Source of the DNA: Candidatus Omnitrophota bacterium
GTDB lineage: Bacteria; Omnitrophota; Gorgyraeia; Aquiviventales; Aquiviventaceae
Reading direction: 5' to 3'
DNA: 64,000 nucleotides
Assembly: GCA_023247255.1 (NCBI GenBank)
Contig: JAHFGV010000005.1
Span: 6,067-70,066, forward strand
The notes beneath the pieces are model-generated. The model saw only the letters and a program-made list of their open reading frames with translations, did no database searches and was not told the DNA's origin. The position numbers and the translations under genes were made by a program. Shown in pieces: positions 25,849-43,766 of this stretch; position 1 is the stretch's first letter, and every line of letters begins with the position of its first letter.

Positions 25849-26925
25849 GTGAACCTCCTCGTTGTGGGACTCAGTCATCGCACCGCGCCGCTCGAATTGC
25901 GCGAGCTGCTGGCGATCCCGTCACGCGAGTTGCCCGACACACTCGGCGATCTTCATACCCAGTTCGGGATCGATGAAGCGGTGATCCTGTCGACCTGCAA
26001 TCGGGTTGAGATCTACGTCATCACACCAGACCCCTCCGCAACCTCCTACGGCCTCATCGACTTCTTGAGTCATCGAAGCCACGTGGCCCCCGAGGCGTTC
26101 CAATCCCGGATGTATTGCCTAACGGGACCTGACGCGGTGAGACAGCTCTTTGGCGTCACTGCAGGGCTGGATTCGATGGTCCTTGGGGAGTCAGAAATCA
26201 CGGCCCAAGTGAAACAAGCCTATCGGGTGGCACAAACCGAAGAGACAACCGGGCTTGTGCTCCATCGCCTCTTCCAGAAAGCCTTGCACACGGCAAAGGT
26301 CATTCGATCCAAGACACGCTTAGGCTTTGGCCAAGCCTCCATCGGATCAATCGTTGTCGCGCTTGCCAGGAAACTCTTCGAAGGGCAACTTCAAAATTGC
26401 GAAGTCTTGCTTTGGGGAGCCGGAAAGGCGGCGGAATCGACTGCACGGTATCTCATCAAGAACGGGGTGGGCCAGTTGTGGATTGTCAACCGCACACCGC
26501 TCAAAGCGCGGGATCTTGCGACGCTTTGCCAAAGCGGCTGGCTCTCGTGGGAGCAGGCGTTGAAGCACCTCGCCCACGTCGATATTGCCATCGTCTGCAC
26601 CCAAGCGCCGCACTACGTCATCGATCAAGGCGACCTCGATGCGGTTGCGGCTCAGCGCGGCAGCCGCCCCCTGTGTCTCGTTGACCTGGCGGTGCCTCGC
26701 AACGTCGAGCCGTCCCTCGCGCGGCATCCCGGTGTGCGCCTCTACAACATCGATGATCTCCAAACCATTACGCAGGCTGCACAATCGCAGCGTGAACAGG
26801 AACGCGAACGCTCTGACGCGCTCATTCAGGAGCAGGTCAACCATTTCTCTCGTTGGTGGATGGCAGTTTCCCACAAGAAGGAGGATGTTCCATGCCGATC
26901 CGTCGAGGCCTTCTCGTCGGTGTGA
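25849..26925 (+). CDS. hemA: glutamyl-tRNA reductase (short C-terminus)
   Basis: GTG start. Motifs VVGLSHRTAPLELRE, STCNRVEIY, GESEI and GAGKAAE are present. At 358 aa it is shorter than the ~420 aa I recall as typical. Confidence 0.85.
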   Translation: MNLLVVGLSHRTAPLELRELLAIPSRELPDTLGDLHTQFGIDEAVILSTCNRVEIYVITPDPSATSYGLIDFLSHRSHVAPEAFQSRMYCLTGPDAVRQLFGVTAGLDSMVLGESEITAQVKQAYRVAQTEETTGLVLHRLFQKALHTAKVIRSKTRLGFGQASIGSIVVALARKLFEGQLQNCEVLLWGAGKAAESTARYLIKNGVGQLWIVNRTPLKARDLATLCQSGWLSWEQALKHLAHVDIAIVCTQAPHYVIDQGDLDAVAAQRGSRPLCLVDLAVPRNVEPSLARHPGVRLYNIDDLQTITQAAQSQREQERERSDALIQEQVNHFSRWWMAVSHKKEDVPCRSVEAFSSV

Positions 26926-28118
26926 GTCTCGTCGCGGCGCTTACGCTCGGAGAATCAGCGTGGGCAACGATCGAGAACCTCAAAAGCTACAAGGCAGCCT
27001 ATCCCGATAAAGATCCCAAGGCCTATTCGTGCAAGGCCTGCCACGAGGGCCTCATCGGGAAGAAAGACAACCTCAACGCCTATGGTCTCACCTTGCAGAA
27101 GTTCAAAGTGGATGCCGGGGCGAAGAAATTGACCGAAGAAGATTTTCGGGCGTTCGAGGCTGCGGATGCTGATGGGGATGGCGCCTCCAATCTTGATGAG
27201 CTGGACGCGGGCACTGATCTGAATGATCCCACGTCCGTGCCGGAGGGCGCTGGGCAAACGCCAGAAAAAAAAGAAGAAAGCCCAGGCACTGAGCAGCAGA
27301 CAAGCCCTCCAGGCGGCGCGTCGCAACTGAATCCAGGGACACTGAAACAGTTGCAGGCCTACCTGGAGGAGCAGATCGTCCCAGACGTTCAAGCGGCGCC
27401 AGAGGAATCGTCAGTGTCTAGGCGGCATGACGACAAAACAGCGTCCAACGCCAAATCCTCCCAACCCGAACAGGCTGAGTACGTGGGGATGGAGACCTGC
27501 GCGATGTGTCATAACAAGCAGCACCAGGAATTTCTCCACTCAACCCATGCCAGGATCGCAATCCCCGGAGAGACCAAGGCGCAAGGTTGTGAGACCTGTC
27601 ATGGGCCCGGCAGTCTGCACGTTGCTGCCGGTGGCGGTCGTGGCGTCGGTGGGATTATCAATCCGAAGAAGGATCCCGGCGCCTGTTTTGCCTGTCACCT
27701 CGACAAGAAAGCGGAATTTCGTTTGCCCCATCACCATCCCGTGATGGAAGGCAAGATGAGTTGTGCGGATTGCCACAATCCCCACGGTGAGGATGTGCGG
27801 CCGTGGTCAGCGACGACGCTGAAGGATATCAATGAGGCCTGCTTTCGGTGCCACAAGGAACAGCGCGGCCCATTCGCCTGGGAACACGAGGCGCTGCGGG
27901 AAGGTTGCACGACCTGTCACAAGGTTCATGGCTCGATTCACGAGAAGATGCTGCTCGTCCGGGACAACAACTTGTGCCTGCGCTGCCATACGCAGACGAA
28001 CTTCCCGACCATTGGCAGGTCCAGCCATGCTGGCCGGCTTCCCCAAGGGACGTGCTTTAGCGCGGGATGCCATACGGCGGTTCACGGATCGAACTTCGAC
28101 GATCACCTCCGCTACTAA
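26892..28118 (+). CDS. periplasmic multihaem cytochrome c (MtrA/DmsE-like body)
   Basis: ATG 26892 follows AAGGAGG, then a signal peptide. 8 CXXCH motifs plus CFSAGCH (CX4CH). C-terminal motif CHTAVHGSN. TSP3-like motif DADGDGASNLDELDAGTDLNDP. Confidence 0.8.
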   Translation: MPIRRGLLVGVSLVAALTLGESAWATIENLKSYKAAYPDKDPKAYSCKACHEGLIGKKDNLNAYGLTLQKFKVDAGAKKLTEEDFRAFEAADADGDGASNLDELDAGTDLNDPTSVPEGAGQTPEKKEESPGTEQQTSPPGGASQLNPGTLKQLQAYLEEQIVPDVQAAPEESSVSRRHDDKTASNAKSSQPEQAEYVGMETCAMCHNKQHQEFLHSTHARIAIPGETKAQGCETCHGPGSLHVAAGGGRGVGGIINPKKDPGACFACHLDKKAEFRLPHHHPVMEGKMSCADCHNPHGEDVRPWSATTLKDINEACFRCHKEQRGPFAWEHEALREGCTTCHKVHGSIHEKMLLVRDNNLCLRCHTQTNFPTIGRSSHAGRLPQGTCFSAGCHTAVHGSNFDDHLRY

Positions 28119-28130
28119 AGGAGACGCCTC

Positions 28131-30191
28131 ATGCGCGCGATGCTTTGTTGGACGTTGGGAGGAATTCTGGGTGTGAGTCTATGGTTACCCTCACGCCTTG
28201 CTGAGGCTGCGGACCCGGAGGTTTCCCTTTCCCTGGAGCCCATCCGTTATGCGTTCGTCAATGGCGACCGGGATAAGTTTAGCGCCCATCATTGGATGAA
28301 AGACAACTACGTCGGAGGCGTGAAGGAGTTTTCCTTCGACTACGCCCTTGCGGATGGAACGCAGCTCTCCGCAGAAAGCCACGCGCTCATTGATCAAAAC
28401 GATTTGGGCGCTGACGTCTCACTTAAGAAAGACTCACTGGGCTTTTTCAATCTCGGCTACTCCGAATTCCGCAAGTATTACGATAAAACCGGTGGTGTGT
28501 ACTATCCGTTTACCACCCTTCGCAGCAACGATACGTTTAAGGACCTTGCTCTGGACATCGGTCACCTCAGCCTTGAAAGCGGGTTGACCCTGGAAGGCTG
28601 GCCTGACCTGACCTTCGAGTACGAGCGCGAATTCAAGGATGGGGCGAAATCGCGCCTGAGCTGGGTCCCAACGAAGGAAGGGACCACCACCCGGAATATC
28701 GGTCCCTCGTGGCAAGATCTTGATGAGGTCGTCGACTCATTTGGCCTCAAAGCCGATCATGAGATCGCAGGATTCACTCTCAAGGGCGAGCAGCGATGGG
28801 AGTTCGTGCGGACCGAAACCTTTCGGGAGGAGAAATTTCTCGCGACAACAGGTGTCGCAGCAGACACCAAGATTCGACGGCAGGACCAAGCCCCGCAAGC
28901 CACCTTGATGACGACGACGTTAGGCGGGGAGCGTTCGTTCTTCGCTGACAAGATATTTACATCGATGGGCTACCATTTCGCCCACATGGATAATCGGGAA
29001 TTCGAGACAATCGTCGAGTCGAACGCGGCTGGAACCGTAACAAACTTTTCGAATCCGAAGCAGATCCGTAATGCGCGCGCCGATAACGACTACGATACCC
29101 ATACCTGGGTAGGGAACTTCATGATCAACCCCTGGAACTGGCTGAGCCTCGGGACCAAACTCAAGGCTGAAGCGATTCACCGGGAGAGCGACTCAAGCTA
29201 TCCGGCGGATGCCTCGCCGAACTCCACGGGCGGCAGCACCCCGAATGGGGCGATCGACTCTCTCGTGGCCAGTCTCAACAAGAACAAGGCCGTTCGCTGG
29301 GGGGAAGGAGTGTCCCTGCGGTTTTTTGGCATCCCACGCACCGCTCTCTACACTGATTTGGAGTTGGAGCAATCGCGAGTAATCTTGGCAGAGGATCGGA
29401 AAGATTTAGTGACGATCCCGAATGTCAACGAGGATTTCAGCCGCTACACTGTCACCAACGTCCGACGAGGGACGTGGACATTGGGCGGCCATGTCGCGCC
29501 GGGGTCGTTCCTCGATCTGACGACGCAGGTCCGGCGACGTGTCAACAACAACGACTACGATGACCAACGGGAAACCGTCGCCTCAGGGACGGCGCTGTCC
29601 GCATTCGTCGATATGCAGAACATCCATACGGATGAGTTCACCACGCGGGCCACGCTGCGGCCCTCTCGGTGGTTTCGCCCCTCGTTCCGGTACCAGTTCC
29701 GTAACGATAAATATGCGACTCGGACGGAAGCGCAGGATACCGTAAAGACGGGTATGCTCTCGAACATCTACACTTTTGACGTAACGGCACAACCGTTGCG
29801 AGACCTCACGACCACCGCCTCCTTCTCGCGTCAGACGGCCGTCACCACCACTCCCGCGGGTTCGGCGTCGTCAGCAAACGTTCCTGGGTTTCGCGCAAAT
29901 GTCAACACGTGGCTTTTCAGCACCGACTACAGCCCAAGGGCGAATGTGAGTATCACCAACGCGCTGCTCTATTCGCGCGCAAGAAACTTCAACGATTTTA
30001 CCGCCAGCGGGATGCCGTTCGGGACCTCGTTTGATCGGCTGGATGTGACCACAGGTCTGAAGTGGGCGCTGACCGAGGATACGTCTGTTGGCACCGAATA
30101 CGCATTCTACTCGTATCTGCCCAATTCGCTGACCGAAGTGGGCGACTACCATGCCCACGTCATCTGGCTCGAGTTGTCGAAGCAGTTTTGA
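28131..30191 (+). CDS. outer-membrane beta-barrel protein (MtrB/PioB-like porin candidate)
   Basis: 686 aa with a signal peptide (..SRLAEA/AD) and alternating aromatic/Gly-rich strands. The C-terminal ..WLELSKQF ends in Phe. Begins 13 nt after the cytochrome gene. Confidence 0.6.
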   Translation: MRAMLCWTLGGILGVSLWLPSRLAEAADPEVSLSLEPIRYAFVNGDRDKFSAHHWMKDNYVGGVKEFSFDYALADGTQLSAESHALIDQNDLGADVSLKKDSLGFFNLGYSEFRKYYDKTGGVYYPFTTLRSNDTFKDLALDIGHLSLESGLTLEGWPDLTFEYEREFKDGAKSRLSWVPTKEGTTTRNIGPSWQDLDEVVDSFGLKADHEIAGFTLKGEQRWEFVRTETFREEKFLATTGVAADTKIRRQDQAPQATLMTTTLGGERSFFADKIFTSMGYHFAHMDNREFETIVESNAAGTVTNFSNPKQIRNARADNDYDTHTWVGNFMINPWNWLSLGTKLKAEAIHRESDSSYPADASPNSTGGSTPNGAIDSLVASLNKNKAVRWGEGVSLRFFGIPRTALYTDLELEQSRVILAEDRKDLVTIPNVNEDFSRYTVTNVRRGTWTLGGHVAPGSFLDLTTQVRRRVNNNDYDDQRETVASGTALSAFVDMQNIHTDEFTTRATLRPSRWFRPSFRYQFRNDKYATRTEAQDTVKTGMLSNIYTFDVTAQPLRDLTTTASFSRQTAVTTTPAGSASSANVPGFRANVNTWLFSTDYSPRANVSITNALLYSRARNFNDFTASGMPFGTSFDRLDVTTGLKWALTEDTSVGTEYAFYSYLPNSLTEVGDYHAHVIWLELSKQF

Positions 30192-30634
30192 TGTGTCCTC
30201 GTCAGCCCCTCAGTCGCCGGGTTTTCCTGGCGCTTTGCCTCAGGGGTGGTGGGCTTGCCCTGCTTGGGGCTGCGCTCTATCCCATCCTGCGGTATCTCTA
30301 TCCTCCCCGAGGCGTTGAATCCTCCGTCTCCAGCGTTGCGGCGGCGAAGGTGGGGGATCTGGCGACGAATACCGCGAAGATCTTCCGGTTCGGCAGTCGG
30401 CCCGGCCTCCTCATTCGTTCCCCCCAAGGCGAGCTCAAAGCCTTCTCGGCGGTGTGCACCCACCTCAACTGCACCGTTCAGTACGACAGCGACGCGAGCA
30501 TCATCTGGTGCGCCTGCCACAACGGCAAGTATGACTTAAACGGACAGGTCATCTCCGGCCCTCCCCCACGACCACTCGATGCCTACCAGGTGAACGTCCG
30601 CGGAGAAGACATCATCGTCTCCAAGACGTCCTAG
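30191..30634 (+). CDS. Rieske [2Fe-2S] protein
   Basis: ATG 30191 overlaps the porin stop (TGATG). RR-containing N-terminus plus a TM helix. Cluster motifs CTHLNC and CACHNG. Confidence 0.85.
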   Translation: MCPRQPLSRRVFLALCLRGGGLALLGAALYPILRYLYPPRGVESSVSSVAAAKVGDLATNTAKIFRFGSRPGLLIRSPQGELKAFSAVCTHLNCTVQYDSDASIIWCACHNGKYDLNGQVISGPPPRPLDAYQVNVRGEDIIVSKTS

Positions 30635-30638
30635 CCTG

Positions 30639-31709
30639 ATGGGGTACTTCGAGCACCTACGCGCATTCTTGCATGAGCGCTACCGGCTGGGTGGCCTAGT
30701 GGATCTCGCCACGCATAAGACGGTCCCCATCCACCGCCACAGCGTCTGGTACTACTGGGGCGGCATGACGCTCGTGCTCATCGGCATCCAGATCATCAGC
30801 GGTGTGCTGCTGTTGCTGTACTACCGCCCATCAGCCCAGGAAGCCTTCGAGTCGGTTCGCTTCCTCATGACGCGGGTGCAATTCGGGTGGCTGGTGCGCT
30901 CCGTGCACGCGTGGGCGGCGAACCTGGCGATCTTCTGCGCGATGGTGCATCTGGCCAGCGTCTTTTTCCTGAAGGCGTATCGGCCACCCCGTGAACTGAC
31001 CTGGGTGACCGGGGTTGTGTTGTTGTTTCTGCTATTTGGTTTCGGATTTACCGGCTACCTCCTGCCGTGGAATACGCTGGCGTTTTTCGCCACCAAGGTC
31101 GGCACGGAAATCGCGGGGATTGTGCCCGTCGTCGGGCCTGTCGTTCAAATCTTTCTGCGCGGTGGAAGCGACGTTGGGGATGTGACGATCACGCGGTTCT
31201 TTTGGCTTCATGTCGCAATCCTGCCAATCGGCCTGATGACACTCTTAAGCCTTCATCTGCTCATGATCCAGCTCCAGGGCATGAGCAAACCGCCTTGGGT
31301 TAAGAGCAATCGGTCCATGCCGTTCTTTCCGAATTTTTTCCTGCGCGATCTGGTTGCCTGGTCACTCATACTGGGGATAGTGCTGTGTGTGAGCGTGCAC
31401 TGGCCCGCGACGCTCGGCGAAAAGGCCGATCCGTTCGCTCCGACACCCGTGGGCATCCAACCGGAATGGTATTTTCTCTGGATGTTTCAGACGCTCAAGA
31501 TTTTCCCTGGCCACCTGTTTGGTCTCGAGGGTGAGTTAGTCGCGGTGGGATTGACCGGACTGGCGGGTCTTGCGCTGCTACTCGTTCCATGGCTGGATCG
31601 CCCCGCCCGACGGGAGCAATCATCCTGGCTGGTATGGGCTGTTGGCGTGTTGGGCATTGCCTATGTCGTCGGGATGACCGGCTACGCGCTATGGGTGAAA
31701 CCTCACTGA
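30639..31709 (+). CDS. cytochrome b (b6 plus subunit-IV-like, fused)
   Basis: 356 aa with WYYWGGMTL, VRSVHAWAANL and GYLLPWN, plus the paired His context. Confidence 0.9.
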   Translation: MGYFEHLRAFLHERYRLGGLVDLATHKTVPIHRHSVWYYWGGMTLVLIGIQIISGVLLLLYYRPSAQEAFESVRFLMTRVQFGWLVRSVHAWAANLAIFCAMVHLASVFFLKAYRPPRELTWVTGVVLLFLLFGFGFTGYLLPWNTLAFFATKVGTEIAGIVPVVGPVVQIFLRGGSDVGDVTITRFFWLHVAILPIGLMTLLSLHLLMIQLQGMSKPPWVKSNRSMPFFPNFFLRDLVAWSLILGIVLCVSVHWPATLGEKADPFAPTPVGIQPEWYFLWMFQTLKIFPGHLFGLEGELVAVGLTGLAGLALLLVPWLDRPARREQSSWLVWAVGVLGIAYVVGMTGYALWVKPH

Positions 31710-32995
31710 TGACAGGGTATCGTCTACGGGTGGCACTCGGACTTCTGCTGTGCCCTGGCTTTGTGTGGTCGGCTGAGAAGCCGAATAGTTGTGTCGAGTG
31801 CCACAAGCAGGTGGAGGGCCAAACGCGAGGGCCGGCCACACTGGCTGCAGAGGACGTGCATTTCCAGCGAGGCTTGTCCTGCGTGGATTGCCATGGCGGC
31901 GATCCAACAGCGATGGATCCTCAAGCCGCGATGGACCCGGCTAAAGGGTTCCTCGGTCGCCCGAGGCGGGAGCAGATTCCCCAGTTTTGCGCCCGGTGCC
32001 ACGCGGATCCGGCCACCATGCGCAAGTACAATCCCAATCTTCCGACTGACCAATACGCGAAGTACCTGACCAGTCAGCACGGGAAGCGCTTCAGTGTTGG
32101 CGATGCCGATGTGCCGGTCTGCATCAGTTGCCACGAGGCGCACGGCATCCGCTCGAAAAAAGACCCAGCCTCGCCGGTCTACCCGACGAACATCCCCGGA
32201 ACCTGCGCGAGCTGCCACAGCGACGCGTCGATCATGGACAAACACGGCTTGCCGGTGAACCAGCACTGGGACTACTCGCAGAGCGTCCACGGCCAGGCGC
32301 TGTTGTTCCGTGGCGATCGTGCGGCTCCCCATTGCGCGAGCTGCCACGGATCGCACGAAGCGGCCAAACCTAGGACGGTCGCAATCGGCAACGTCTGCGC
32401 TCAGTGCCATAGCCTCACGCGCGATCTGTTTGCAAAGAGTCCCCACAAGGCCGCGCATGAAGCCTTAGGGCTTCCGGAGTGCGAGGTCTGCCACGGCAAT
32501 CACCTGATCCGCAAGCCAAGCGACGAGATGCTTGGGACGGGACAAGATGCGGTGTGTGTCAGTTGTCACGAGCCAGGGTCGACCGGCTACGTCACCGCGC
32601 AGCAGATGCGCAGCGCCATCGAGCAACTGAAAACCCACATGGCCAGCGCTGAGGCAGCCGTCAGGCACGCAGCGGAGTTGGGCATGGATGTCGGTGACGC
32701 GGAATTTGAGCTTCGCGAGGCGATGACCCAACTCACGCAAGAGCGCACCTACGTCCACTCTTTCTCCGCCGCAACCATGGAACCCATTGCCGAGGAGGGA
32801 ACTCACCACGCCCTGCGGGCCGAGGGGCAAGCCCGCCAGGCGATCCGTGAGTTTCATTTCCGCCGTCAGGGCTTGTGGGTCACCCTGATCATTCTCGCCC
32901 TCGTGGTTTCTGGACTCCTTCTGAAGATTCGAGACTTGGAGCGATCGGACTCGACAGACAAGATGGACGACACATCCCCTCGCGACTCCTCGTAA
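31709..32995 (+). CDS. nonahaem cytochrome c with C-terminal membrane anchor
   Basis: ATG 31709 overlaps the cyt b stop (TGATG). Signal peptide, 9 CXXCH motifs, a helical region and a C-terminal TM (LWVTLIILALVVSGLLL). Confidence 0.8.
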   Translation: MTGYRLRVALGLLLCPGFVWSAEKPNSCVECHKQVEGQTRGPATLAAEDVHFQRGLSCVDCHGGDPTAMDPQAAMDPAKGFLGRPRREQIPQFCARCHADPATMRKYNPNLPTDQYAKYLTSQHGKRFSVGDADVPVCISCHEAHGIRSKKDPASPVYPTNIPGTCASCHSDASIMDKHGLPVNQHWDYSQSVHGQALLFRGDRAAPHCASCHGSHEAAKPRTVAIGNVCAQCHSLTRDLFAKSPHKAAHEALGLPECEVCHGNHLIRKPSDEMLGTGQDAVCVSCHEPGSTGYVTAQQMRSAIEQLKTHMASAEAAVRHAAELGMDVGDAEFELREAMTQLTQERTYVHSFSAATMEPIAEEGTHHALRAEGQARQAIREFHFRRQGLWVTLIILALVVSGLLLKIRDLERSDSTDKMDDTSPRDSS

Positions 32996-33032
32996 AATCT
33001 GCCATTTCCGGCTATGATATCTGCGGAGCATC

Positions 33033-34550
33033 ATGAACCACACATCGATGCCAAAACCCCCCAGCCTCTTGCGCAACCCGCTGAGCTTTTTCGGCCTCGC
33101 CGTCGCCATCACGAGCACGGCGTTTGGCCTGCCCATGATGTTCGTCGACATGTTCAGTCGACGCACGCATCCGTATCTTGCTGTGCTCGTTTATCTCGTG
33201 CTGCCGTTCGTTGCAGCAGGCGGCGTCGGCTTAGTCCTGCTTGGAGCATTGTGGGAACGCCGTCGAAGACGCCGACGGCCTGGCATGGTAGTGCCACCCC
33301 TGCCATCCATCGATCTCAATCGAAGCGCCCACCAGATTGCTGTGGCTGGAGCACTCACAACGTTCATGACTATTGTGGCCATGCTCTCCGTGACCGGCTA
33401 CCGGGCGTACCACTTTACGGAGTCGGTCAAATTCTGCGGCCTGGTCTGTCACCAGGTGATGAAACCGGAGTATACGGCGTATCAGTATTCTCCGCATGCG
33501 CGCGTGGCCTGCACCCAGTGCCATGTCGGGCCTGGTGCAAGCTGGTTCGTGCGCTCAAAGATCACAGGAGCGTATCAGGTTTACGCGGTTACATTCAACA
33601 AGTACCCGCGCCCGATTCCCACACCCGTGAAGAGCCTGCGTCCGGCGCAAGAAACTTGCGAGCAATGCCACTGGCCGGCGAAGTTTTTTGGCGCGCAGCA
33701 GAAAACCTTCACGCACTACATGGCGGATGAGCACAACAGCCCGTGGCAGATTCAGATGCTGCTGAAAATCGGCGGCGGCGATCCGTCGGTTGGCGCTCCT
33801 GCGGGCATTCACTGGCACATGAACATCAAGAACGATATTTATTACATTGCCTCAGATGAGCAGCGGGAAACCATTCCGTGGGTGCGCGTGGTCGAGCCGC
33901 AGGGACGCATCGCCGAATATATGTCGATGGAAAGTCCGCTCTCGCCGGAGCAGATCGTAAAGAGCGAAGTGCGCCGCATGGACTGCGTGGATTGCCACAA
34001 CCGGCCCTCCCACATCTTTCGACCGCCGGATCGTGCGGTGGAGGAGGCCTTCGAGACCGGCCGGCTAGAGCGGTCCCTGCCGTATCTGAAGCGCGAAGCC
34101 ATAAGGTTGTTGGCGCAAGAGTACCCCTCGGAGGAGCAGGCGTTATCAGCCATCCTGAAAGGCTTGGCCGAGTTCTACCAGAAGGACTATCCAGAGGTGT
34201 ATCGCGAACAGGCAGTCGCTATTCAACAGGCCACAGCTGAGTTGCAACGCATCTATTCGAGGAATTTCTTTCCCGAGATGCGCGCCGATTGGCGCGCCCA
34301 TCCCAACCACATGGGCCATCTAAATGCCGAAGGCTGCTTCCGCTGCCACGATGGGCTGCACAAAAACCGCGAGGGCAAGGTGCTAACCAAAGACTGTACC
34401 GCCTGTCACACGATCTTGGCCCAGGGGCCACCTGAGGAGGTGGCGCAAGCCAAGCTTGAAGCGCAGCCGTTTCGCCACCCGGTCGACGTGGGGATGGACG
34501 TGACGGAATTTAAGTGCAGCCAGTGTCATACCGGCACGAGCGGTCTCTAG
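33033..34550 (+). CDS. membrane-anchored multihaem cytochrome (NapC/NirT-related, ImcH-like architecture)
   Basis: 505 aa with N-terminal TM helices. CGLVCH (CX3CH) followed by 6 CXXCH motifs. Confidence 0.7.
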   Translation: MNHTSMPKPPSLLRNPLSFFGLAVAITSTAFGLPMMFVDMFSRRTHPYLAVLVYLVLPFVAAGGVGLVLLGALWERRRRRRRPGMVVPPLPSIDLNRSAHQIAVAGALTTFMTIVAMLSVTGYRAYHFTESVKFCGLVCHQVMKPEYTAYQYSPHARVACTQCHVGPGASWFVRSKITGAYQVYAVTFNKYPRPIPTPVKSLRPAQETCEQCHWPAKFFGAQQKTFTHYMADEHNSPWQIQMLLKIGGGDPSVGAPAGIHWHMNIKNDIYYIASDEQRETIPWVRVVEPQGRIAEYMSMESPLSPEQIVKSEVRRMDCVDCHNRPSHIFRPPDRAVEEAFETGRLERSLPYLKREAIRLLAQEYPSEEQALSAILKGLAEFYQKDYPEVYREQAVAIQQATAELQRIYSRNFFPEMRADWRAHPNHMGHLNAEGCFRCHDGLHKNREGKVLTKDCTACHTILAQGPPEEVAQAKLEAQPFRHPVDVGMDVTEFKCSQCHTGTSGL

Positions 34551-34627
34551 GCCTGCCCGCCTGTCGTCCAAAAGTGTGATCTGGGTCATAGTTCGTCTCC
34601 CTGCGTTCTGAGAAGATTACTTAGGCG

Positions 34628-36183
34628 ATGGGGGAGGCTCTGACGAGAAACGGCGGACGGATACGGCGCGTAGCGCTCTGCGCGCTCTTCACGTGCTGGA
34701 CCTGGGCGCCGCGGGCCATGGGAGAGGGCAGCGTCTCTCCAGCCGCGCAAGAGATCGACAACGCTGCCTGTCTGGCTTGCCATGGTGATCCCTCGGCAAT
34801 CCGCTTTGTGGACCACGCGAAGTTCGAGGCTTCCGTCCATGGGAGTTTTTCCTGCACTACCTGCCACGCGGATGTCGTCACCATTCCCCATGACGTGCCG
34901 CTGGAGTCGATCAGTCAGTCGCAGATCCCCCTCACGTGCGGCCAGTGCCATGAAGACATCAAGGCTGCCTACCAGCGGAGTATCCACGCTCAGGCGGTCG
35001 CCGCCGGCAAGCGCCATGCGCCCGTCTGCACCGACTGCCATGGTGAGCACTATGTGGCCCCGGTGAAAACGGAGGCGTCGAAAGTGTTTCCCTCGCACAT
35101 CCCGCAGACGTGCGCACAGTGCCACGCGGCGGAGCGCATCGTTACGAAGTATCGGTTGCCGGCGTACGTGGTCGATACGTACATGAGCAGCTTCCACGGC
35201 CTCATACACCAACTGGGATCCGTGACGGCCGCGAACTGCGCCTCCTGCCACGGGGCGCATGACATTCTCCCCGCGAACGACGAGCGTTCCTCGGTCAATC
35301 CGAAGAACCTGCCGAAAACCTGTGGCTCCTGCCATCCGGGCGTCGGCGCGTTCGTCGCACAGGGAAAGATTCACTCCGGCACACAGCCCGGAGCGGAACA
35401 TCCTGCGGTGACATTCGTTCGCCGGTTCTACCTCATCCTCATCGGTTTGGTCATTGGGGGCATGCTGATTCACAACGGTCTCGATTTCCGCAAAAAACTC
35501 TCGATCCATTACCAACGGATGGCCGCCAGCAGCGCGGTACAACGGATGAGTCTTAATGAGCGCCTTCAACATGGCGTGCTCTTGATCGCCTTTGCGACGC
35601 TCGCCTATACCGGATTTGCGTTAAAGTTCCCGCATGTCTGGTGGGCACGCCCCTTCATGGGCCGCGTCGACTGGCGCCGCCTGGGGCATCGGGGAGCGGC
35701 GGTCGTCTTCTGCCTGCTCGCCGGCTACCACCTCTGGTTCATGACGTGCACGAAACGGGGGCGGAGCGAGTTGCGCGCCTTGCGACCCGAACGAGCCGAC
35801 TTCACGCACCTGAGACGGATGCTCGGCTTCTATCTGGGTAGGAGCCGGGAGCAGCCGCGCGCGGCGCGGTACAGCTACGTGGAGAAAGCGGAGTATTGGG
35901 CGCGGTCTGGGGTTCAGTCATCATGGTGCTCACCGGCGGTCTGATGACCTGGCAGAATTGGACATTGCGCTTCCTGCCCAAGTGGGCGTTCGATGTTTTT
36001 ATCACGGTGCATTTTTATGAAGCACTCCTCGCATGCTTGGCGATCCTTATTTGGCACCTCTACTTCGTCATGTACGATCCCGATGAATACCCGATGAAGT
36101 GGACGTGGATCAGCGGCAAGGCCTCACCCACCGACGAGGCACATCGGCATCCAGGCGACGCCGAGGAAGGCAATCCAGGCTGA
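34628..36183 (+). pseudogene. CbcL-like fusion of a heptahaem cytochrome c to an FdnI/HydC-type cytochrome b membrane domain, frameshifted
   Basis: Signal peptide, 7 CXXCH motifs, then TM helices. The reading frame breaks near 35899-35905 (..KAEYWA / VWGSVIMVLTG..). The track shows two ORFs, 34628..35944 and 35896..36183. Confidence 0.65.
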
Positions 36184-36269
36184 ATCCTCTAAGACTTAAC
36201 GCCGTGTTGGCGCAAAAACATACCTCGGAGGCGCAAACGTCCTCTGTATGATAAAATAGAAACCTTGCC

Positions 36270-38051
36270 ATGACACCCTTCGTCCGATTCCTTGGATCGC
36301 TGAGCATCGCGGTGCCGCTGCTGATCGTGATTGCCCTGGTGCTCGCATGGGGCACCATCTATGAAACCCGCTTTGGCACGGCGGCGGTTCAGCGCTTTGT
36401 CTACCACGCGTGGTGGTTTCAAGCGCTCCTCGGCTTTCTGGCGATCAACCTCGCCGTGGCTGCGCTCGAGCGCTATCCGTGGCAGCGTCGACACCTGCCG
36501 TTTGTCCTGGCCCACATCGGCATCATCCTCATCCTGATTGGGGGGATTATCGGAGCCCGATTCGGCATCGAGGGTCAGATGATCATTCCGGAAGCTCAGG
36601 CCGAGCGCGTCCTCGAGCAGCCAGGCAATGTCCTTGTAGTGCGCCAGCCAAACCCGGGTCTATCTATCATCATCCCCACGCAGTTTGAAACGCAGGCCTG
36701 GGTGCATGAGCCGAACGCGACCTTTCCCGTGACTCTCGATGGCCGGACGATTGCGCTCACCGTCGACCGCTACTATCCCGACGCGGTGACGGATGAAGAA
36801 ATCACAAGCGGTGGCGCTGAGGACAATCCGGCTCTCCACATGCTGCTTACGCACAACGAGCAGCAGGATGCGGTGTGGCTCATGAGCAGGGACTCTGAGC
36901 GTTTTGGTATGGGCTGGGGTGAGGCGCACGTGCTCTTCCTTGAACCAAGAACTGCTTCTGAAGTCGATCGGCTTACTGGGGCTGGGCGCTCACCTGGCGT
37001 CGCGTCTGCGCGAGGCGTGATCGTTATCCGCCTACCCGGGATGCATGCGCCACGCGAGATTCCGGTTCCCGATGAGCGCAACCGATCCGTCGACGTCACA
37101 GGCACGCCCTATCAGATCATCTTCAAGGATTACTTTCCCGATTTTGCGATTACCGAACAGGGGATCGTGAGCCGCTCGCTTGAGGCCAATAACCCTGCGG
37201 TTTCTTTCATCATCACCGGACCCGAGGGAACCGATGCGTATTTGCTGTTTGCGCTCCATCCCGATTTTCAAACGATCCATGGCTTCGAACATAAGATCGA
37301 CGCCCAGGTGAGTTATACCCACACCGCCAGCGCTGCGCTGCCTCCCAATTGTATCGGGCTCATCCGTGCACCATCAGGAACCTTAATCGGTATCTTGACC
37401 GGCAGCGGGACCGATCGATCCGTGATCAATCCGCTGGAACTTGGCAAACGGTACACCCACCCTTCGCTCGGCTATCAGTTTGAAGTCGCCACGTACTATC
37501 CCCGTGCGGTTCTCACGCAGCACGTCACCAACCGAGGAGATGAAATCAAAGCCGAAACGCTTCATCTCGTGGGACGTGAAGGTGATCAGAGCGCAGAGGC
37601 GTGGTTGGGTTTGCGCGGCTCGGCAGAATTCGCGTTGGGAAAGGAGCCGGTTACGATTGAGTACCGACCGGCCCGATGGGAGCTGCCGTTTACCATCAAG
37701 CTCTTGGACTTTCGCAAGATCGACTATCCAGGAACGCAGATGGCCTCGGCGTTTGAAAGCGACGTGGAGCTCACCGATTCTCAGCGGGGTGTCATCCTGA
37801 TGCGCAAGATTACGATGAACAACCCCCTGCGCTACCGCGGGTTTAGCGTGTACCAATCCAGCTACATCGAAGGCCCGACGGAAACCACAGTGCTCTCGGT
37901 GCGCAATGATCCAGGAACCCCATTTGTTTATGCGGGGTTCATCATTGTGATCGCCGGCGTCGTCAGTATGTTTGTGCTCGGCACCCCCTCCACGACCGCA
38001 ACCCCTCCGCCTTCGATCCGGCGAGTACGCAGAAGGAGCCGCTCTTCATGA
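36270..38051 (+). CDS. ccsB: cytochrome c biogenesis protein CcsB/ResB (System II)
   Basis: 593 aa with the ResB-like N-terminus (SIAVPLLIVIALVLAWGTIYE), a large periplasmic domain and a C-terminal TM. Confidence 0.85.
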   Translation: MTPFVRFLGSLSIAVPLLIVIALVLAWGTIYETRFGTAAVQRFVYHAWWFQALLGFLAINLAVAALERYPWQRRHLPFVLAHIGIILILIGGIIGARFGIEGQMIIPEAQAERVLEQPGNVLVVRQPNPGLSIIIPTQFETQAWVHEPNATFPVTLDGRTIALTVDRYYPDAVTDEEITSGGAEDNPALHMLLTHNEQQDAVWLMSRDSERFGMGWGEAHVLFLEPRTASEVDRLTGAGRSPGVASARGVIVIRLPGMHAPREIPVPDERNRSVDVTGTPYQIIFKDYFPDFAITEQGIVSRSLEANNPAVSFIITGPEGTDAYLLFALHPDFQTIHGFEHKIDAQVSYTHTASAALPPNCIGLIRAPSGTLIGILTGSGTDRSVINPLELGKRYTHPSLGYQFEVATYYPRAVLTQHVTNRGDEIKAETLHLVGREGDQSAEAWLGLRGSAEFALGKEPVTIEYRPARWELPFTIKLLDFRKIDYPGTQMASAFESDVELTDSQRGVILMRKITMNNPLRYRGFSVYQSSYIEGPTETTVLSVRNDPGTPFVYAGFIIVIAGVVSMFVLGTPSTTATPPPSIRRVRRRSRSS

Positions 38052-39709
38052 AACGCGCCTTTATGACGATTATGACGATGGCGTTATTGTTCGGAGCCTT
38101 GGCGAGATTTATGAGCGTATTCGCAGATCAGCCCGTTGCCCTGCCGCGCGAGGCGCTCGAGACCATACGTCGCATGGCCATCCAACACAATGGACGCAAC
38201 AAACCCTTCGACAGCTTTGCGCGAGAAACCCTCCGACTCATCACCGGCTCAGCGCGCGTGGGAAATGAAGATCCTGTCGAAACCATCTTGACCCTCATGG
38301 CCAGTCCCGACCATGGGCAGCAGTTGCTGCTTGTGTCGGTTCCATTTATCCCTCTGCGAAAGGCTCTGGGCATGGATCCCAAGGCGACGCAGGTGTCCTA
38401 CAACGATTTGGTTGCGACACGCAAGCTCATGCGGCTGCTGCCCCCGATTGTCCAAAAGCAGCAGCGCGAAGAGAAACTTTCGATGCTGGAAGAAGAGACG
38501 ATGGATGTCTTCCAGCGATTTGCCACCCTGAGCACTCTGCTCGAGCAAAAGCTCAACCTCGTGCCTCCACCTGTTGGATCTGCAGAGCGTGTGTGGCAGC
38601 TTGTTGAGGAGCCGTCGGGCTATGCGCCAGCGCAGCAAGAGACCATTCGTACCGCATGGTCCGGGCTGATCGGTGCGGTGCAAGCTGGGCGGGGCGATGC
38701 GGTGATTACCTCAGCGCGTCATGCGGCAGATGCGCTGCGAGATCTGAGCCCTTCTCGCTATCCTCCTCGGTGGCGATTAGCGTTCGAGGTGTTCTACAAC
38801 CACGTCGCGCCATTTCGAATCGCCCAAGGGTTCTATCTGCTCTCAGCGATCCTGTTGTTTCTGAGCCTTGGCGCATTGAAGAAATTCCGGCCAGCGCTTT
38901 TGGGATTTGTCGCTTGCTGCTTCGCGTTTCTCGCGCATGGATCAGGTATCCTGATGCGCGTTGTTCTGGGTGAGCGTCCGCCGGTCTCGAATTTTTTTGA
39001 GACCACGCTGTGGCTGCCGTTCGTCGCAGTCGCCATTGCGCTCATCCTGGAACGTGTGTACCGGACTCGTTACATCGCCCTGGCTGCGGCGATCCTTGCG
39101 ACAATCACCCTGGTTCTCGCGGATCATCTGCCGCTGGACTCGAGCATCTCTCCGGTGGTCGCCGTGCTCCACAGCAATCTCTGGTTGACGATTCACGTGT
39201 TGACCATCGTGGCGAGCTACGGCGCGCTGACCCTGGCGATTGTGCTGGCGCACATGTATGGGGGGATGTACCTGAGTCGCCGCACGAGCGGCTCAACGTT
39301 AGATGCGTTGGGGACATTTCTCTATCGCGTCATCCAAGTCGGCGTCGTGTTATTGGCGGCGGGGATCATGCTGGGCGCCGTGTGGGCCAACGCCTCTTGG
39401 GGCCGTTACTGGGGCTGGGATCCGAAAGAGACCTGGGCGTTGATTACCCTCATCTGGTTCCTGGCGCTGCTGCACGGACGCTTCGCCGGATGGATCAGCG
39501 GTGTTGGCGTAGCCCTGTGCACCGTCGGCGGATTTTTTCTGCTGCTGATGACCTACTACGGTGTCAGCTTCTATCTCGTCGGTCTGCACAGCTATGCCGG
39601 TGCTCATGCCAAGCCCTTGCCCCCAGTTCTCATCGCCTACCTCATCGCTGAACTGGCGTTCATCATCGTGGTGAGCGTCTCAGCCATACTCCGCAGGCGG
39701 CCAGCGTAG
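38048..39709 (+). CDS. ccsA: cytochrome c biogenesis protein CcsA/ResC with N-terminal extension
   Basis: The ATG overlaps the ccsB stop (ATGA). W-rich motif WGRYWGWDPKETWALITLIW. About 240 extra N-terminal residues. Confidence 0.85.
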   Translation: MKRAFMTIMTMALLFGALARFMSVFADQPVALPREALETIRRMAIQHNGRNKPFDSFARETLRLITGSARVGNEDPVETILTLMASPDHGQQLLLVSVPFIPLRKALGMDPKATQVSYNDLVATRKLMRLLPPIVQKQQREEKLSMLEEETMDVFQRFATLSTLLEQKLNLVPPPVGSAERVWQLVEEPSGYAPAQQETIRTAWSGLIGAVQAGRGDAVITSARHAADALRDLSPSRYPPRWRLAFEVFYNHVAPFRIAQGFYLLSAILLFLSLGALKKFRPALLGFVACCFAFLAHGSGILMRVVLGERPPVSNFFETTLWLPFVAVAIALILERVYRTRYIALAAAILATITLVLADHLPLDSSISPVVAVLHSNLWLTIHVLTIVASYGALTLAIVLAHMYGGMYLSRRTSGSTLDALGTFLYRVIQVGVVLLAAGIMLGAVWANASWGRYWGWDPKETWALITLIWFLALLHGRFAGWISGVGVALCTVGGFFLLLMTYYGVSFYLVGLHSYAGAHAKPLPPVLIAYLIAELAFIIVVSVSAILRRRPA

Positions 39710-39820
39710 CGTTCTCGCCTTCTTCCCTAAGGGATCATGCGCCCAAGGAATTCTCATCTCCTCTTTATCCTTGACCTCCTCTACGGCACATCTTAGTTGT
39801 CCAGCCGACAAAAGGTCTCC

Positions 39821-39834
39821 ATGACGTTCGTCAT
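39821..39834. promoter_or_regulatory. Crp/Fnr-type dyad site 3
   Basis: CC-ATGAC-GTTC-GTCAT-GGAAGA. Confidence 0.5.
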
Positions 39835-39929
39835 GGAAGACTCTTATCCGGAGCCGCTATCCTCTTTTTCATGACACATCCGTGAATCACGGCTACAAAT
39901 GGCCGACTTGCTGACGATAAGGTCGTTTC

Positions 39930-39960
39930 TCACAAAGTTCACACCCTGTGAACATTGTGA
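39930..39960. promoter_or_regulatory. 31-nt near-perfect palindrome (operator or hairpin candidate)
   Basis: TCACAAAGTTCACA-CCC-TGTGAACATTGTGA. Arms are 13/14 complementary. Confidence 0.35.
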
Positions 39961-40157
39961 GAGGTACGTTACCGTCGACGAAGCGTGAAATTCCCGCCAG
40001 GTTTGCAACGGAGCTGTCCGGGAAGCGAGGCCGCTCCGACGAGACAGCGGTTGCCTTCGAACTCAATGTTCCCGGTTCCGTACGGTTTTGCAACACTTCT
40101 CGCTCCGCCATCGACGAGGAGCAGCGTAACTCAGACGCGATTCAGGACATAACACAG

Positions 40158-40213
40158 GACTCATGAAACAGACGTGAGCACTGCCACTAACCTCGATGCA
40201 TTTTGTAAAACCC
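40158..40213 (+). repeat. 55-nt satellite copy of the 2645-2699 element end
   Basis: GACTCATGAAACAGACGTGAGCACTGCCACTAACC is identical in both copies. CGATGCATTTTG..AAAACCC follows with 2 differences. Confidence 0.8.
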
Positions 40214-42250
40214 CAGTTACGACTGACGCCTTCCAAGTCTTCTTGCACCTGCTGTAGTGAATCCATCTGCTGCAGCGAATCTCGCGAAAGGTTGACAGGC
40301 TTGTCTGGCCAGCGTCACACGCCGAGCCTCATCGTAACCGGCAACCCCAACGTCGGGAAAAGCGTCATCTTCCAGCTCCTCACCGGCCGCTACGCCACCG
40401 TGTCGAACTATCCGGGCACCACGGTTGCAGTTACCCGAGGATCGGCTTCGTTAGACGGCCGGGTGGTTCGCGTCTACGACACGCCAGGAATCAATAGCTT
40501 GTTCGCCGCCTCAGAAGATGAGCTGGTCGCACGCGATCTGCTGCTGGGTGAACGAACCACCGTGGTGCAGGTTAGCGATGCCAAGAACCTGCTACGTGCC
40601 CTCACACTGACCTTGGAACTGGCTGAAGCTGGACTTCCATCCGTCCTGGATCTGAACATGATGGACGAAGCCAGGGAACGTCGAATCAGCATTGATACGA
40701 AGAAGCTCTCAGGGTTACTTGGGATCTCGGTTGTGCCGACCATTGCAACGCAGCGGTGGGGTATCGAGCGGTTGCGTCGAGTGATCCTGCAGGCACAGCA
40801 GGCTCGGGTTGGCGTTTGCTACCCCAAAGTGATTGAAGATGCCATTGCCAAGATGGTGGAGGTCCTACCAAAGACGCTGGGCGTACGGAAAGCCCTGGCG
40901 TTGTTCTGGCTTGCTGGGGATCGGAACATCATCGAGCAGCTCAAGAAGCAATTCGACCCATCAATCATCGAGGCGCTGACGGCAATCGCTGCGCAGGCTC
41001 AAGAACAGACCTCTGGCCCATTAGGGTTGCTGATCAGTCAAGCCCGACTCCGCGAGGCCGAGCGACTCGTCAAGCAGGTGATGACGACTGCACCTCTGGA
41101 GCGCCAGCGGTGGTTTTACCGCCTGGGTGATTGGGCGATGCACCCGGTTTGGGGGGTGCCCATCCTCGTTGGCGTCCTGGTCATGATGTACTTCCTCGTC
41201 GGAAATCTCGCAGCTCAGCGTGGCGTAGATTTCCTAGAAGACGTGGTCTTTGGGCGCTACCTCACCCCAGTCTTTCAGTGGGTTGTTCAAGGGGCGATCC
41301 CTTGGGGGTGGCTCAAGGCGCTCTTCATCGGTGAGTACGGCCTGCTGACGATGGCTCTGCCCTACGCTTTTGCGATCATCCTGCCCATCGTGGGGATGTT
41401 CTTTCTCTGCTTCGGATTGCTTGAGGATGTGGGCTACCTTCCTCGACTAGCCGTGATGGCCAATCGCTTTTGTCGGCTCCTGGGTCTCAACGGCAAGGCG
41501 GTGCTCCCACTCGTGCTGGGGTTGGGATGCGACACAATGGCCACGATGACCGCCCGCATCCTCGACTCGGATCGGGATCGGATCATCACAACGCTCTTGT
41601 TGGCACTCGGCATCCCTTGTTCCGCTCAACTGGGCGTCATCCTAGCGATGCTGGCGGGCCGCCCGCCGTTGGCCCTGGGGATTTGGCTTGGCGTGTTACT
41701 CATGGTGATCATTGTGGTTGGTCAAGCCGCGTCAAGAATCCTGCCGGGCGAGGAGAGCCCGTTTCTCTACGAGATCCCACCGCTTCGCACGCCGAAGCTG
41801 TCGAATGTGCTGATCAAGACGCTGGGTCGCATCGAGTGGTATGTGAAAGAAGCCGTCCCGCTGTTCTTCCTGGGAACCCTGGTGTTATTCCTCCTCGATG
41901 TGACAGGAGCCCTGGCGGTCTTCGAGCGAATCGGGACCCCGCTCATTGTCTCGTGGCTCGGGCTGCCAGCCAAAGCGACCAGTGCATTTCTGGTGGGATT
42001 TCTCCGACGGGATTTTGGTGCGGCCGGGCTCTTCGCGCTTCAGCGAAACGGAATGTTATCTGGAGTCCAGACCGTCGTCAGCCTCGTTACCATCACGCTG
42101 TTTGTCCCCTGCATCGCCCAGTACTTCATGATGGTCAAAGAGCGCGGCTGGAAACTCGCAAATCTGATGGCGGGGTTTGTCTTCGGGATGGCGCTGCTTG
42201 TTGGAGGTCTCCTCTTGCGCGTTCTCACCCTGTTGCGAGTTACCCTATGA
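40196..42250 (+). CDS. feoB: ferrous iron transporter FeoB
   Basis: G-domain motifs GNPNVGKS and NYPGTTV, followed by a polytopic permease. The ATG at 40196 lies in the repeat, so the true start is uncertain (TTG near 40293 is possible). Confidence 0.9.
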   Translation: MHFVKPQLRLTPSKSSCTCCSESICCSESRERLTGLSGQRHTPSLIVTGNPNVGKSVIFQLLTGRYATVSNYPGTTVAVTRGSASLDGRVVRVYDTPGINSLFAASEDELVARDLLLGERTTVVQVSDAKNLLRALTLTLELAEAGLPSVLDLNMMDEARERRISIDTKKLSGLLGISVVPTIATQRWGIERLRRVILQAQQARVGVCYPKVIEDAIAKMVEVLPKTLGVRKALALFWLAGDRNIIEQLKKQFDPSIIEALTAIAAQAQEQTSGPLGLLISQARLREAERLVKQVMTTAPLERQRWFYRLGDWAMHPVWGVPILVGVLVMMYFLVGNLAAQRGVDFLEDVVFGRYLTPVFQWVVQGAIPWGWLKALFIGEYGLLTMALPYAFAIILPIVGMFFLCFGLLEDVGYLPRLAVMANRFCRLLGLNGKAVLPLVLGLGCDTMATMTARILDSDRDRIITTLLLALGIPCSAQLGVILAMLAGRPPLALGIWLGVLLMVIIVVGQAASRILPGEESPFLYEIPPLRTPKLSNVLIKTLGRIEWYVKEAVPLFFLGTLVLFLLDVTGALAVFERIGTPLIVSWLGLPAKATSAFLVGFLRRDFGAAGLFALQRNGMLSGVQTVVSLVTITLFVPCIAQYFMMVKERGWKLANLMAGFVFGMALLVGGLLLRVLTLLRVTL

Positions 42251-42323
42251 TTCCACCACCTGTGTGTTGGCCGCAGGCCGGGCGCTGGCGTGGCACGCGG
42301 CCCCCTCGATGGAGCCAGCGACC

Positions 42324-42344
42324 GGTTTCGCCTTCGGCGAAACC
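42324..42344 (+). terminator. stem-loop after feoB (weak terminator candidate)
   Basis: GGTTTCGCC-TTC-GGCGAAACC, a perfect 9-bp stem. No clear U-tract. Confidence 0.3.
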
Positions 42345-42359
42345 ATATAGTGTGGTAGG

Positions 42360-43254: not shown

Positions 43255-43308
43255 CCTTCCACACGACCCAAGTCCCCTGGACGCCGTGTAATCAGAATCT
43301 ATCCATCC

Positions 43309-43322
43309 ATGACTCCCGTCAT
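43309..43322. promoter_or_regulatory. Crp/Fnr-type dyad site 4
   Basis: CC-ATGAC-TCCC-GTCAT-GGAAGA. Flanks are identical to site 3. Confidence 0.5.
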
Positions 43323-43581: not shown

Positions 43582-43586
43582 CAGGC

Positions 43587-43760: not shown

Positions 43761-43766
43761 GCGAAG

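Follow-up and report, generated by a model that had tools for sequence, protein, structure and literature searches.

An imcH-family gene beside a CbcL-like multihaem-c/dihaem-b fusion gene in a cytochrome cluster of an Omnitrophota bacterium

Does an Omnitrophota bacterium encode, side by side, relatives of ImcH and CbcL, two cytochromes of the inner membrane, and what could such a pair do there? CbcL is needed for acceptors below about -0.1 V and its activity is potential-gated. The ImcH family is needed for acceptors above about -0.1 V and carries out electroneutral menaquinol oxidation (Levar 2014; Zhong & Shi 2018; Pimenta 2023). An original prediction, made from the sequence of a 64,000-nucleotide (nt) stretch of Candidatus Omnitrophota bacterium (contig JAHFGV010000005.1, positions 6,067 to 70,066; hereafter the window), placed both next to each other. 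We call the gene at 33033..34550 gene 1 and the CbcL-like gene starting at 34628 gene 2; an imcH-family gene together with a multihaem-c/dihaem-b fusion gene is called the pair. [quoted passage not shown] The features of the pair are the following:

33033..34550, plus strand: gene 1, imcH-family gene for a 505-amino-acid (aa) inner-membrane heptahaem cytochrome c (open reading frame (ORF), haem motifs, PF03264)
34628..35944, plus strand: gene 2, 5' part, with the signal sequence, the seven-haem periplasmic domain, the linker helix and, of the FdnI-type helices, the first two (His315, His354)
35903..35904, plus strand: frameshift site, one T absent between the two bases (comparison with a 99.94%-identical contig)
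35904..36183, plus strand: gene 2, 3' part in another frame, with the last two FdnI-type helices (His462, His477, intact-protein numbering) and a short cytoplasmic tail

Gene 1 is an uninterrupted ORF whose first haem motif is FCGLVCH (CX3CH, Cys135), followed by six CXXCH motifs at 160, 209, 318, 435, 455 and 495. Three N-terminal helices were predicted by hydropathy (about 20-38, 51-69 and 102-120) and also by AlphaFold (16-41, 47-81 and 98-129, with a predicted local distance difference test score (pLDDT) of 75-90). The AlphaFold model was poor overall (26-sequence alignment, mean pLDDT 56, haem regions below 50) and the helices alone were used. The Arg-rich loop at 75-82 fits the cytoplasmic side. 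ORF, motifs and helices are thus as originally described, and they agree with the definition of ImcH homologues given by Zhong and Shi (PMC6295460), namely three helices and an atypical CX3CH by the membrane, with six CXXCH motifs and 495-519 aa in the Geobacter group. The NapC/NirT N-terminal region was recognized as well (PF03264, 35.4 bits versus a cut-off of 24.1), and the sole PDB sequence relative of gene 1 was NrfH (2J7A), aligned over the first haem motif and with its catalytic Lys82 equivalent to Lys176. The PDB sequence searches returned no solved ImcH or CbcL; apart from NrfH and FdnI the one match was an unrelated cytochrome c of 278 aa (28pb). Gene 1 resembles NrfH, CymA and NapC in the membrane-proximal haem 1 pocket, the conserved Lys and the alignment of the first four haems, but these proteins have one helix, four or five haems and about 160-200 aa, in contrast to the three helices, seven haems and CX3CH motif of gene 1. 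The curated NrfH model gave 55.7 bits versus a cut-off of 134.2 (TIGR03153).

The similarity to ImcH of Geobacter sulfurreducens (GSU3259) is much closer. This protein has 507 aa, three N-terminal helices, NapC/NirT homology and haem motifs at 132, 156, 205, 311, 428, 448 and 486 (PMC6295460 Table S3), a spacing nearly identical to that of gene 1. The same table contains three 505-aa ImcH homologues from Omnitrophica WOR_2 with motif positions the same as in gene 1. One protein of our collection (P0016), 77% identical to gene 1 over the full length, appears to be one of the tabulated homologues, A3I71_03655 (OGX46065.1), because its source name 'A3I71_03...' agrees. For GSU3259, 13 His plus Gln179 have been predicted as axial ligands, and Glu127, Lys173 and Tyr188 as conserved protonatable residues of the quinol pocket (Pimenta et al., 10.1101/2023.05.03.539133 Fig. 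S2). By position (offsets +3 to +8) and partial alignment, all 13 ligand His are present in gene 1 (140, 155, 164, 213, 260, 262, 322, 327, 429, 439, 459, 482 and 499), and Gln182, Glu130, Lys176 and Tyr191 match the haem 1 ligand Gln and the Glu/Lys/Tyr pocket. Identity to residues ~1-275 of GSU3259 was 46% over 266 positions, a lower bound since this segment was recovered from a machine-read supplementary alignment in which letters were lost. With an ImcH-type protein of the Desulfuromonadales (locus L091) gene 1 shared 38% over 465 aa (E 1e-119; E 3e-85 with the haem motifs masked). Published identities for ImcH in other phyla are 31.5-49% (Levar 2014; Zhong & Shi 2018; Pimenta 2023), and the accepted homologue of Desulfuromonas soudanensis is 39% identical to GSU3259 (PMC4914508). 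By every sequence-level test of the family, then, gene 1 encodes a full ImcH-family protein, as had been proposed. It differs from GSU3259 imcH in phylum and in setting, since it does not stand as a single-gene unit but shares an apparent operon with conduit genes, a bc complex and the b-fusion.

The case of gene 2 is less simple. In the intact 518-aa form, whose numbering is used for all analyses of this protein, it has a signal-like N-terminus, seven CXXCH motifs (48, 76, 104, 134, 162, 204 and 232), a linker helix, an Arg/Lys-rich loop and four more helices (five in all). The membrane domain matched PF01292 (Ni_hydr_CYTB) at 6.9e-13, above the cut-off, and TIGR01583 (FdnI) at 5e-15, below it. 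The haem-b ligands of Escherichia coli FdnI (formate dehydrogenase-N gamma, 1KQF chain C), His18, His57, His155 and His169, correspond to His315, His354, His462 and His477 of gene 2, and the four are invariant in 25 homologues. FdnI shares with gene 2 the four-helix dihaem b fold, the four His and a quinone site on the cytoplasmic side. Gene 2 differs in having no FdnG/FdnH partners; electrons would enter or leave through the covalently fused haem-c domain.

As CbcL reference we used, in place of GSU0274, the orthologue of Desulfuromonas thiophila, rebuilt from locus L090 across an assembly frameshift. It was reached from machine-read fragments of GSU0274 (PMC9129911 supplement), which gave six short protein fragments, two of them leading to genomic loci. 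The rebuilt protein is 614 aa long, with nine haems at 32, 57, 81, 104, 128, 156, 184, 227 and 255, those of GSU0274 being at 34, 57, 82, 105, 129, 158, 186, 229 and 257. Gene 2 is collinear with it from the first haem to the end of the FdnI core (27% over 521 columns, E 3e-48), its haems 1-7 pairing with CbcL haems 3-9. The last four haem intervals are 30, 28, 42 and 28 in gene 2 versus 29, 28, 43 and 28 in CbcL. The membrane domain alone gave E 4e-17 and the haem domain, with CXXCH masked, E 3e-8. We judge the homology to CbcL to be real and to extend beyond CXXCH, because the similarity survives masking and shuffled-sequence controls reached at most 22 bits. The condition set for refuting the original prediction, no similarity beyond generic CXXCH motifs, thus does not hold, and the masked E of 3e-85 for gene 1 agrees.

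Gene 2 thus has the CbcL design, a periplasmic multihaem c domain fused through a linker helix to a b-type membrane domain with FdnI/HydC-type dihaem b ligands and all four b-haem His kept, as in GSU0274 and the Desulfuromonas orthologues. But two structural features of the CbcL/MtoC/MtrH family are absent from the predicted protein. There are seven haems rather than the nine of Geobacter CbcL, and no sixth helix after the FdnI core (five helices; 41 aa after the last b-His vs 87-89 in the CbcL clade and 88 in CbcL). The 27% identity to D. thiophila CbcL also lies outside the published range of the family (28.6-100%), and in the clade comparison described below the protein stands apart. The MtoC/MtrH proteins of Gallionella, Dechloromonas and Rhodoferax, compared by description rather than by alignment, are likewise multihaem-c/dihaem-b fusions beside MtrAB/MtoAB-type conduits; they differ from gene 2 in size (655-673 aa), haem number (9), spacing (ending 31, 25, 30, 28) and helices (6). 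The CbcL design originally proposed therefore stands as architecture and collinear homology, but it does not extend to membership of the CbcL/MtoC/MtrH clade.

Two observations concern the reference loci themselves. In two long-contig assemblies the cbcL genes, at L090 6697..8540 (D. thiophila, 2.9 Mb) and at L091 6635..8511 (a 686-kb contig), are frameshift-broken and annotated as separate small proteins; the breaks probably arose in assembly, and they would make surveys of protein sets miss CbcL. At L090 10522..14073 a sigma54-type response regulator lies beside a multihaem cytochrome c and a separate Ni_hydr_CYTB protein, an arrangement like that of cbcBA and its regulator in Geobacter.

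Fusions of the multihaem-b kind are already known, with 3-23 haems. We gathered 146 such proteins from related loci and they formed two cleanly separated groups. The large group, which includes gene 2, has five helices, a haem number that is mostly 9, 11 or 13, and a tail with a median length of 61 aa. Those of its proteins that were sampled share 36-60% identity with gene 2 and 25-29% with CbcL. The small group comprises the CbcL orthologue and 19-haem proteins of ~920 aa; with one exception its proteins have six helices and a tail of 87-89 aa. Two of the 19-haem proteins, taken as samples, share 38-40% with CbcL and 28-30% with gene 2. In a neighbour-joining tree of the membrane domains, midpoint-rooted and drawn without support values, the clade of gene 2 is opposite the CbcL plus 19-haem clade. 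Gene 2 falls, by these comparisons, in a putative five-helix clade sister to that of CbcL. Most of its relatives in this clade have 11 or 13 haems. It belongs to a small 7-haem set (P0122-P0124, P0144, P0152 and P0175) that lacks one four-haem repeat of the common 11-haem form (spacing 28, 21, 30, 29, 43, 28, 30, 28, 42, 28). The haem domains of these fusions consist of repeats of a four-haem unit with a spacing of about 30, 28, 42, 28.

The gene had been described as a single frame, 34628..36183, combining a 7-haem domain with an FdnI-type dihaem b domain. The domain composition is right, but a one-base deletion was overlooked. The frame from 34628 stops at 35944 (438 codons) and is out of frame from about 35904, while the continuation to be expected (VWGSVIMVLTGG...) belongs to the ORF 35896..36183, which uses a different frame. 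A metagenome contig that is 99.94% identical to window positions 32384..44549 (6 mismatches and 1 gap in 12,167 nt) has GCGCTGGTC where the window has GCGCGGTC, and encodes the intact 518-aa protein. The window lacks one T between 35903 and 35904. The public annotation of the 83,087-bp source contig shows only the 438-aa stub (P0121), without the two helices that carry His462 and His477. There is no homopolymer at the deletion site, and the missing base may be an error of the assembly or else a very recent inactivation. A programmed frameshift was considered and ruled out by the plain in-frame gene of the near-identical contig.

Is the adjacency of the two genes peculiar to this genome? This was implied by the original prediction, and the census does not support it. 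An ImcH profile scan with one genome per species gave at least 599 loci, of which the best 80 were examined. They come from Omnitrophota, Acidobacteriota, Ignavibacteriota, Bacteroidota, KSB1, Kiritimatiellales, Zixibacteria, Binatia, Dadabacteria, Verrucomicrobia and others, none of them from Geobacter, and their proteins are 43-76% identical to gene 1 over essentially the full length. An FdnI-type b-domain gene was found within 400 base pairs (bp) of imcH in 54 of these 80 loci (same strand in 53), and in 47 of the 54 the adjacent b-domain ORF has at least five CXXCH motifs. A b-domain gene was present within 10 kb in 8 more, the flanks were too short in 12, and none was found in the remaining 6, which have full flanks. 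The reverse census, with 80 metagenome loci anchored on the gene-2 family, had imcH directly adjacent and on the same strand in 28 and within 6 kb in 8 more; no imcH was found in 16 loci with full flanks. The sample leans towards Acidobacteriota, and the counts carry no phylogenetic correction.

The order seen in the window, imcH and then the fusion, is also found in the Omnitrophota locus L010, the Kiritimatiellales locus L061 and 12 metagenome loci, and the reverse order dominates in Acidobacteriota. L010, from a second Omnitrophota species, repeats the operon-like run of the window: a porin gene is followed by those for Rieske, cytochrome b and multihaem c, then by imcH and an 11-haem fusion, with ResB-CcsA further along. 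Three quinone-linked modules (imcH, b-fusion and Rieske/cytochrome b) lie within 10 kb in 20 of the 80 best species loci. The separation of imcH and cbcL assumed for Geobacter holds for G. sulfurreducens, where imcH is monocistronic (PMC4251993), but not for Geobacteraceae bacterium GWB2_52_12, with imcH as A2X80_11560 and cbcL as A2X80_11570. Elsewhere in the Desulfuromonadales, cbcL is followed ~0.6 kb later by an imcH-type gene in L091, and in D. soudanensis imcH and cbcL are seven loci apart (PMC4914508). The pairing is therefore a widespread conserved gene module in many phyla, not peculiar to this genome, and it is G. sulfurreducens that departs from the common pattern. In those Rifle WOR_2 genomes that are nearest to the window, the conduit, bc and imcH genes are retained but a Crp gene takes the place of gene 2, which fits their absence from the published CbcL table (PMC6295460). 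The best matches and the synteny of the window likewise indicate an Omnitrophota genome of WOR_2 type.

The pair lies in the distal part of a longer run of genes on the plus strand whose neighbours overlap or are separated by at most 87 nt, opened by genes for a Crp-type regulator, a hemerythrin-domain protein and HemA, 5' of the decahaem gene. The members that flank the pair are:

26853..28118, plus strand: MtrA/DmsE/MtoA-like decahaem cytochrome (TIGR03508 2.2e-47, NF041028 1.8e-46, neither reaching the curated cut-off; Paired_CXXCH)
28131..30191, plus strand: porin-like protein of 686 aa, partner of the decahaem protein (no family match)
30191..30634, plus strand: Rieske 2Fe-2S subunit (PF00355 1.5e-13)
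30639..31709, plus strand: cytochrome b, b6/subunit IV fused type (PF00033 2.7e-48; NF002990 and ExtP-like matches)
31709..32995, plus strand: multihaem cytochrome c of the bc module, its start overlapping the cytochrome b stop
36270..38051, plus strand: ResB/CcsB-like cytochrome c maturation protein of System II (PF05140 9.5e-31)
38048..39709, plus strand: CcsA/ResC-like haem-handling protein of System II (PF01578 1e-30, TIGR03144 1.5e-46)

The order at 26853..32995 places the pair directly after the conduit and bc genes, as predicted. The spacing before gene 1 is 38 nt and before gene 2, 78 nt. It is this spacing that makes the conduit, bc, pair and System II genes consistent with a putative operon-like run, since a scan for consensus promoters and terminators gave matches at chance level only, none above. 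The predicted decahaem product is the periplasm-to-outer-membrane wire of the conduit. Zhong and Shi (PMC6295460) found no mtrAB/mtoAB beside imcH; the window (26853..34550) and loci L003-L006, L008 and L011 are counter-examples, with imcH clustered with MtrA/MtoA-like and porin genes, and in L095 such genes are paired with a fusion of the gene-2 family. The three quinone-interacting modules that had been proposed for this cluster are present at the level of domains, one of them frameshifted in this assembly.

If both genes work as their relatives do, the three helices of gene 1 would hold a periplasmic chain of seven haems at the membrane. As judged from its homologues NrfH and Geobacter ImcH, menaquinol would be oxidised at a periplasm-side pocket by haem 1 (CX3CH, His/Gln ligation) with Glu130, Lys176 and Tyr191 nearby. 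The protons would be released to the periplasm, and the electrons would pass down the haem chain to cytochromes that are soluble or part of the conduit, a route shown for ImcH of Geobacter. The intact gene 2 would combine its seven-haem domain, through one linker helix, with an FdnI-type four-helix dihaem cytochrome b. In the FdnI fold the quinone site is on the cytoplasmic side, so that electrons would have to cross the membrane to or from the periplasmic haems, and this transmembrane step would spend or gain membrane potential depending on the direction. Together with the Rieske/cytochrome b complex, ImcH and the fusion may thus give several routes between quinone pool and periplasm with different energy yield, the two modules of the pair probably acting as quinol oxidases at different driving forces. 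Outward flow to extracellular acceptors is the default reading, taken from Geobacter.

Several points weigh against this reading. The functions of the gene-2 clade and of the Omnitrophota ImcH are assigned by homology, and the GSU3259 comparison was built on a machine-read alignment and published residue numbers instead of a database sequence. The fusion is dispensable for the cluster, because gene 2 is absent from this site in the nearest relatives, those of Rifle WOR_2, and with gene 2 frameshifted in the window the module may be dead in this strain. Moreover, the direction of electron flow is not readable from sequence, a Rieske/cytochrome b complex and an MtoAB-like conduit in one cluster are typical of Fe(II) oxidisers, and for MtoC and MtrH, which are related to CbcL, operation in either direction has been suggested (PMC6295460). 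The strongest of the alternatives is that gene 2 is a true pseudogene here, leaving only the bc and ImcH quinone modules at work as in the Rifle WOR_2 relatives. A deletion outside any homopolymer, the missing His462/His477 helices of the stub and the related genomes that live without the gene would all fit. However, the gene is intact in the 99.94%-identical contig, the indel is the single one in 12 kb with no other decay, and a one-base assembly or consensus error is equally likely; we regard the pseudogene as possible, though somewhat doubtful. Inward flow, with electrons from Fe(II), reduced humics or a partner cell entering by the conduit and reaching the quinone pool by way of the FdnI-type fusion or of ImcH, which would then be quinone reductases, and with the Rieske/cytochrome b complex in the same chain, seems rather unlikely. 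The MtoAB-like conduit and the Rieske/cytochrome b genes in the same operon-like cluster do speak for it, as do the MtoC-type fusions in the mtoAB clusters of Fe(II) oxidisers (PMC6295460), the mtoA-mtoB-cytochrome c-fusion arrangement of L006, and a periplasmic Nar/Nxr-type enzyme 9 kb downstream as a possible sink. But ImcH homologues have so far been tied only to quinol oxidation in metal reducers (PMC6295460, PMC4251993), inward transfer of electrons through an FdnI-type b domain would oppose the membrane potential, and Fe(II) is usually too positive to reduce menaquinone.

The molybdoenzyme just mentioned leads to another possibility, that the pair mainly serves this enzyme rather than the conduit, supplying it with quinol electrons via c-type cytochromes. 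The set at 43767..52801 contains no NarI-type quinol oxidase and is preceded by TatA, which would suit such a service. Yet the ResB, CcsA, FeoB and regulator genes separate it from the pair, the partners that imcH keeps from phylum to phylum are the b-fusion, the bc complex and multihaem/porin genes rather than this enzyme, and the cytochrome c-EB_dh protein of the set occurs in only 1 of 171 loci; we consider this improbable. It is hardly credible that the pair simply encodes an ordinary nitrite reductase subunit of NrfH type and an ordinary FdnI-type subunit of a formate dehydrogenase or hydrogenase. The best curated models are indeed NrfH (TIGR03153, 5e-15) and FdnI (TIGR01583, 5e-15), but the scores are far below the curated cut-offs (55.7 vs 134 bits and 56 vs 116 bits), no NrfA, FdnGH or hydrogenase genes were found nearby, and neither the sizes nor the haem numbers nor the extra helices agree with such subunits. 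This enzyme-subunit identity was ruled out on the low scores and the absent catalytic partners. More speculatively, ImcH and the five-helix fusion could be an ancestral, functionally coupled pair, with one quinone site facing the cytoplasm and the other the periplasm, from which the separate ImcH and six-helix CbcL of Geobacter would be derived and uncoupled. The pair would then form either a proton-motive redox loop between two periplasmic cytochrome pools that differ in potential, with electrons passing for example from the conduit to the fusion, menaquinone, ImcH and a periplasmic terminal reductase, or a built-in two-gear quinol oxidase. We find this coupling unlikely, slightly more so than inward flow.

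Returning to the reading of two different links between quinone pool and periplasm, part of it was known before. ImcH homologues in Omnitrophica WOR_2 have been tabulated (PMC6295460), multihaem-b fusions have been described, and the window adds one member. The result is a modest one, an Omnitrophota-type genome with an operon-like cluster that links an outer-membrane conduit to three quinone-linked modules, and this combination makes the organism a candidate for extracellular electron exchange. In the literature searched we found no statement that imcH outside Geobacter usually pairs with a multihaem-b fusion, and none of a five-helix partner clade distinct from CbcL, MtoC and MtrH. Both are offered as a lead rather than as a demonstrated discovery. 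The reported homologues in Acidobacteria, 2 of CbcL type versus 19 of ImcH (PMC6295460), suggest that the five-helix partner family has been overlooked, because CbcL-type proteins are so much fewer. The lead bears on which proteins partner ImcH, and on whether the Geobacter model of a different pathway for each redox potential extends to other phyla.

Some neighbouring features deserve mention. The 686-aa porin-like protein, for which no Pfam or NCBIfam model matched, looks like an undescribed porin family of porin-cytochrome conduits, because clear homologues occur only in a few Omnitrophota-type loci (L003, L010, L011 and L095). They lie beside MtoA-like genes in L003, L011 and L095, whereas in L010 the edge of the locus leaves no more than a fragment. 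Ahead of its MtrA-like core the decahaem cytochrome is extended by a long N-terminal segment (26853..27400) with one CXXCH and an acidic, calcium-binding-like stretch; this extension gave a weak GEGP-dihaem match in the window and a TSP3_bac match in relatives. Farther downstream come FeoB, an iron-dependent repressor/FeoA fusion, TatA and the molybdoenzyme genes, a periplasmic set of Nar/Nxr/EBDH type:

43767..52801: 532-aa dihaem cytochrome c-EB_dh haem-b fusion, 1207-aa molybdopterin subunit, DUF2490 protein, 4Fe-4S subunit and NarJ-like chaperone

The NarI-type membrane subunit being absent from this set, its electrons probably come via c-type cytochromes. Just upstream of the cytochrome cluster a DDE transposase ORF (21135..22136) lies between tRNA-Val and tRNA-Asp (19140..19213 and 23769..23842), and the cluster might be at a variable site. 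Further upstream, 3900..17239 carries NuoL/M/N-type antiporter subunits and the alpha, gamma and beta genes of an F-type ATP synthase, a region rich in respiratory genes.

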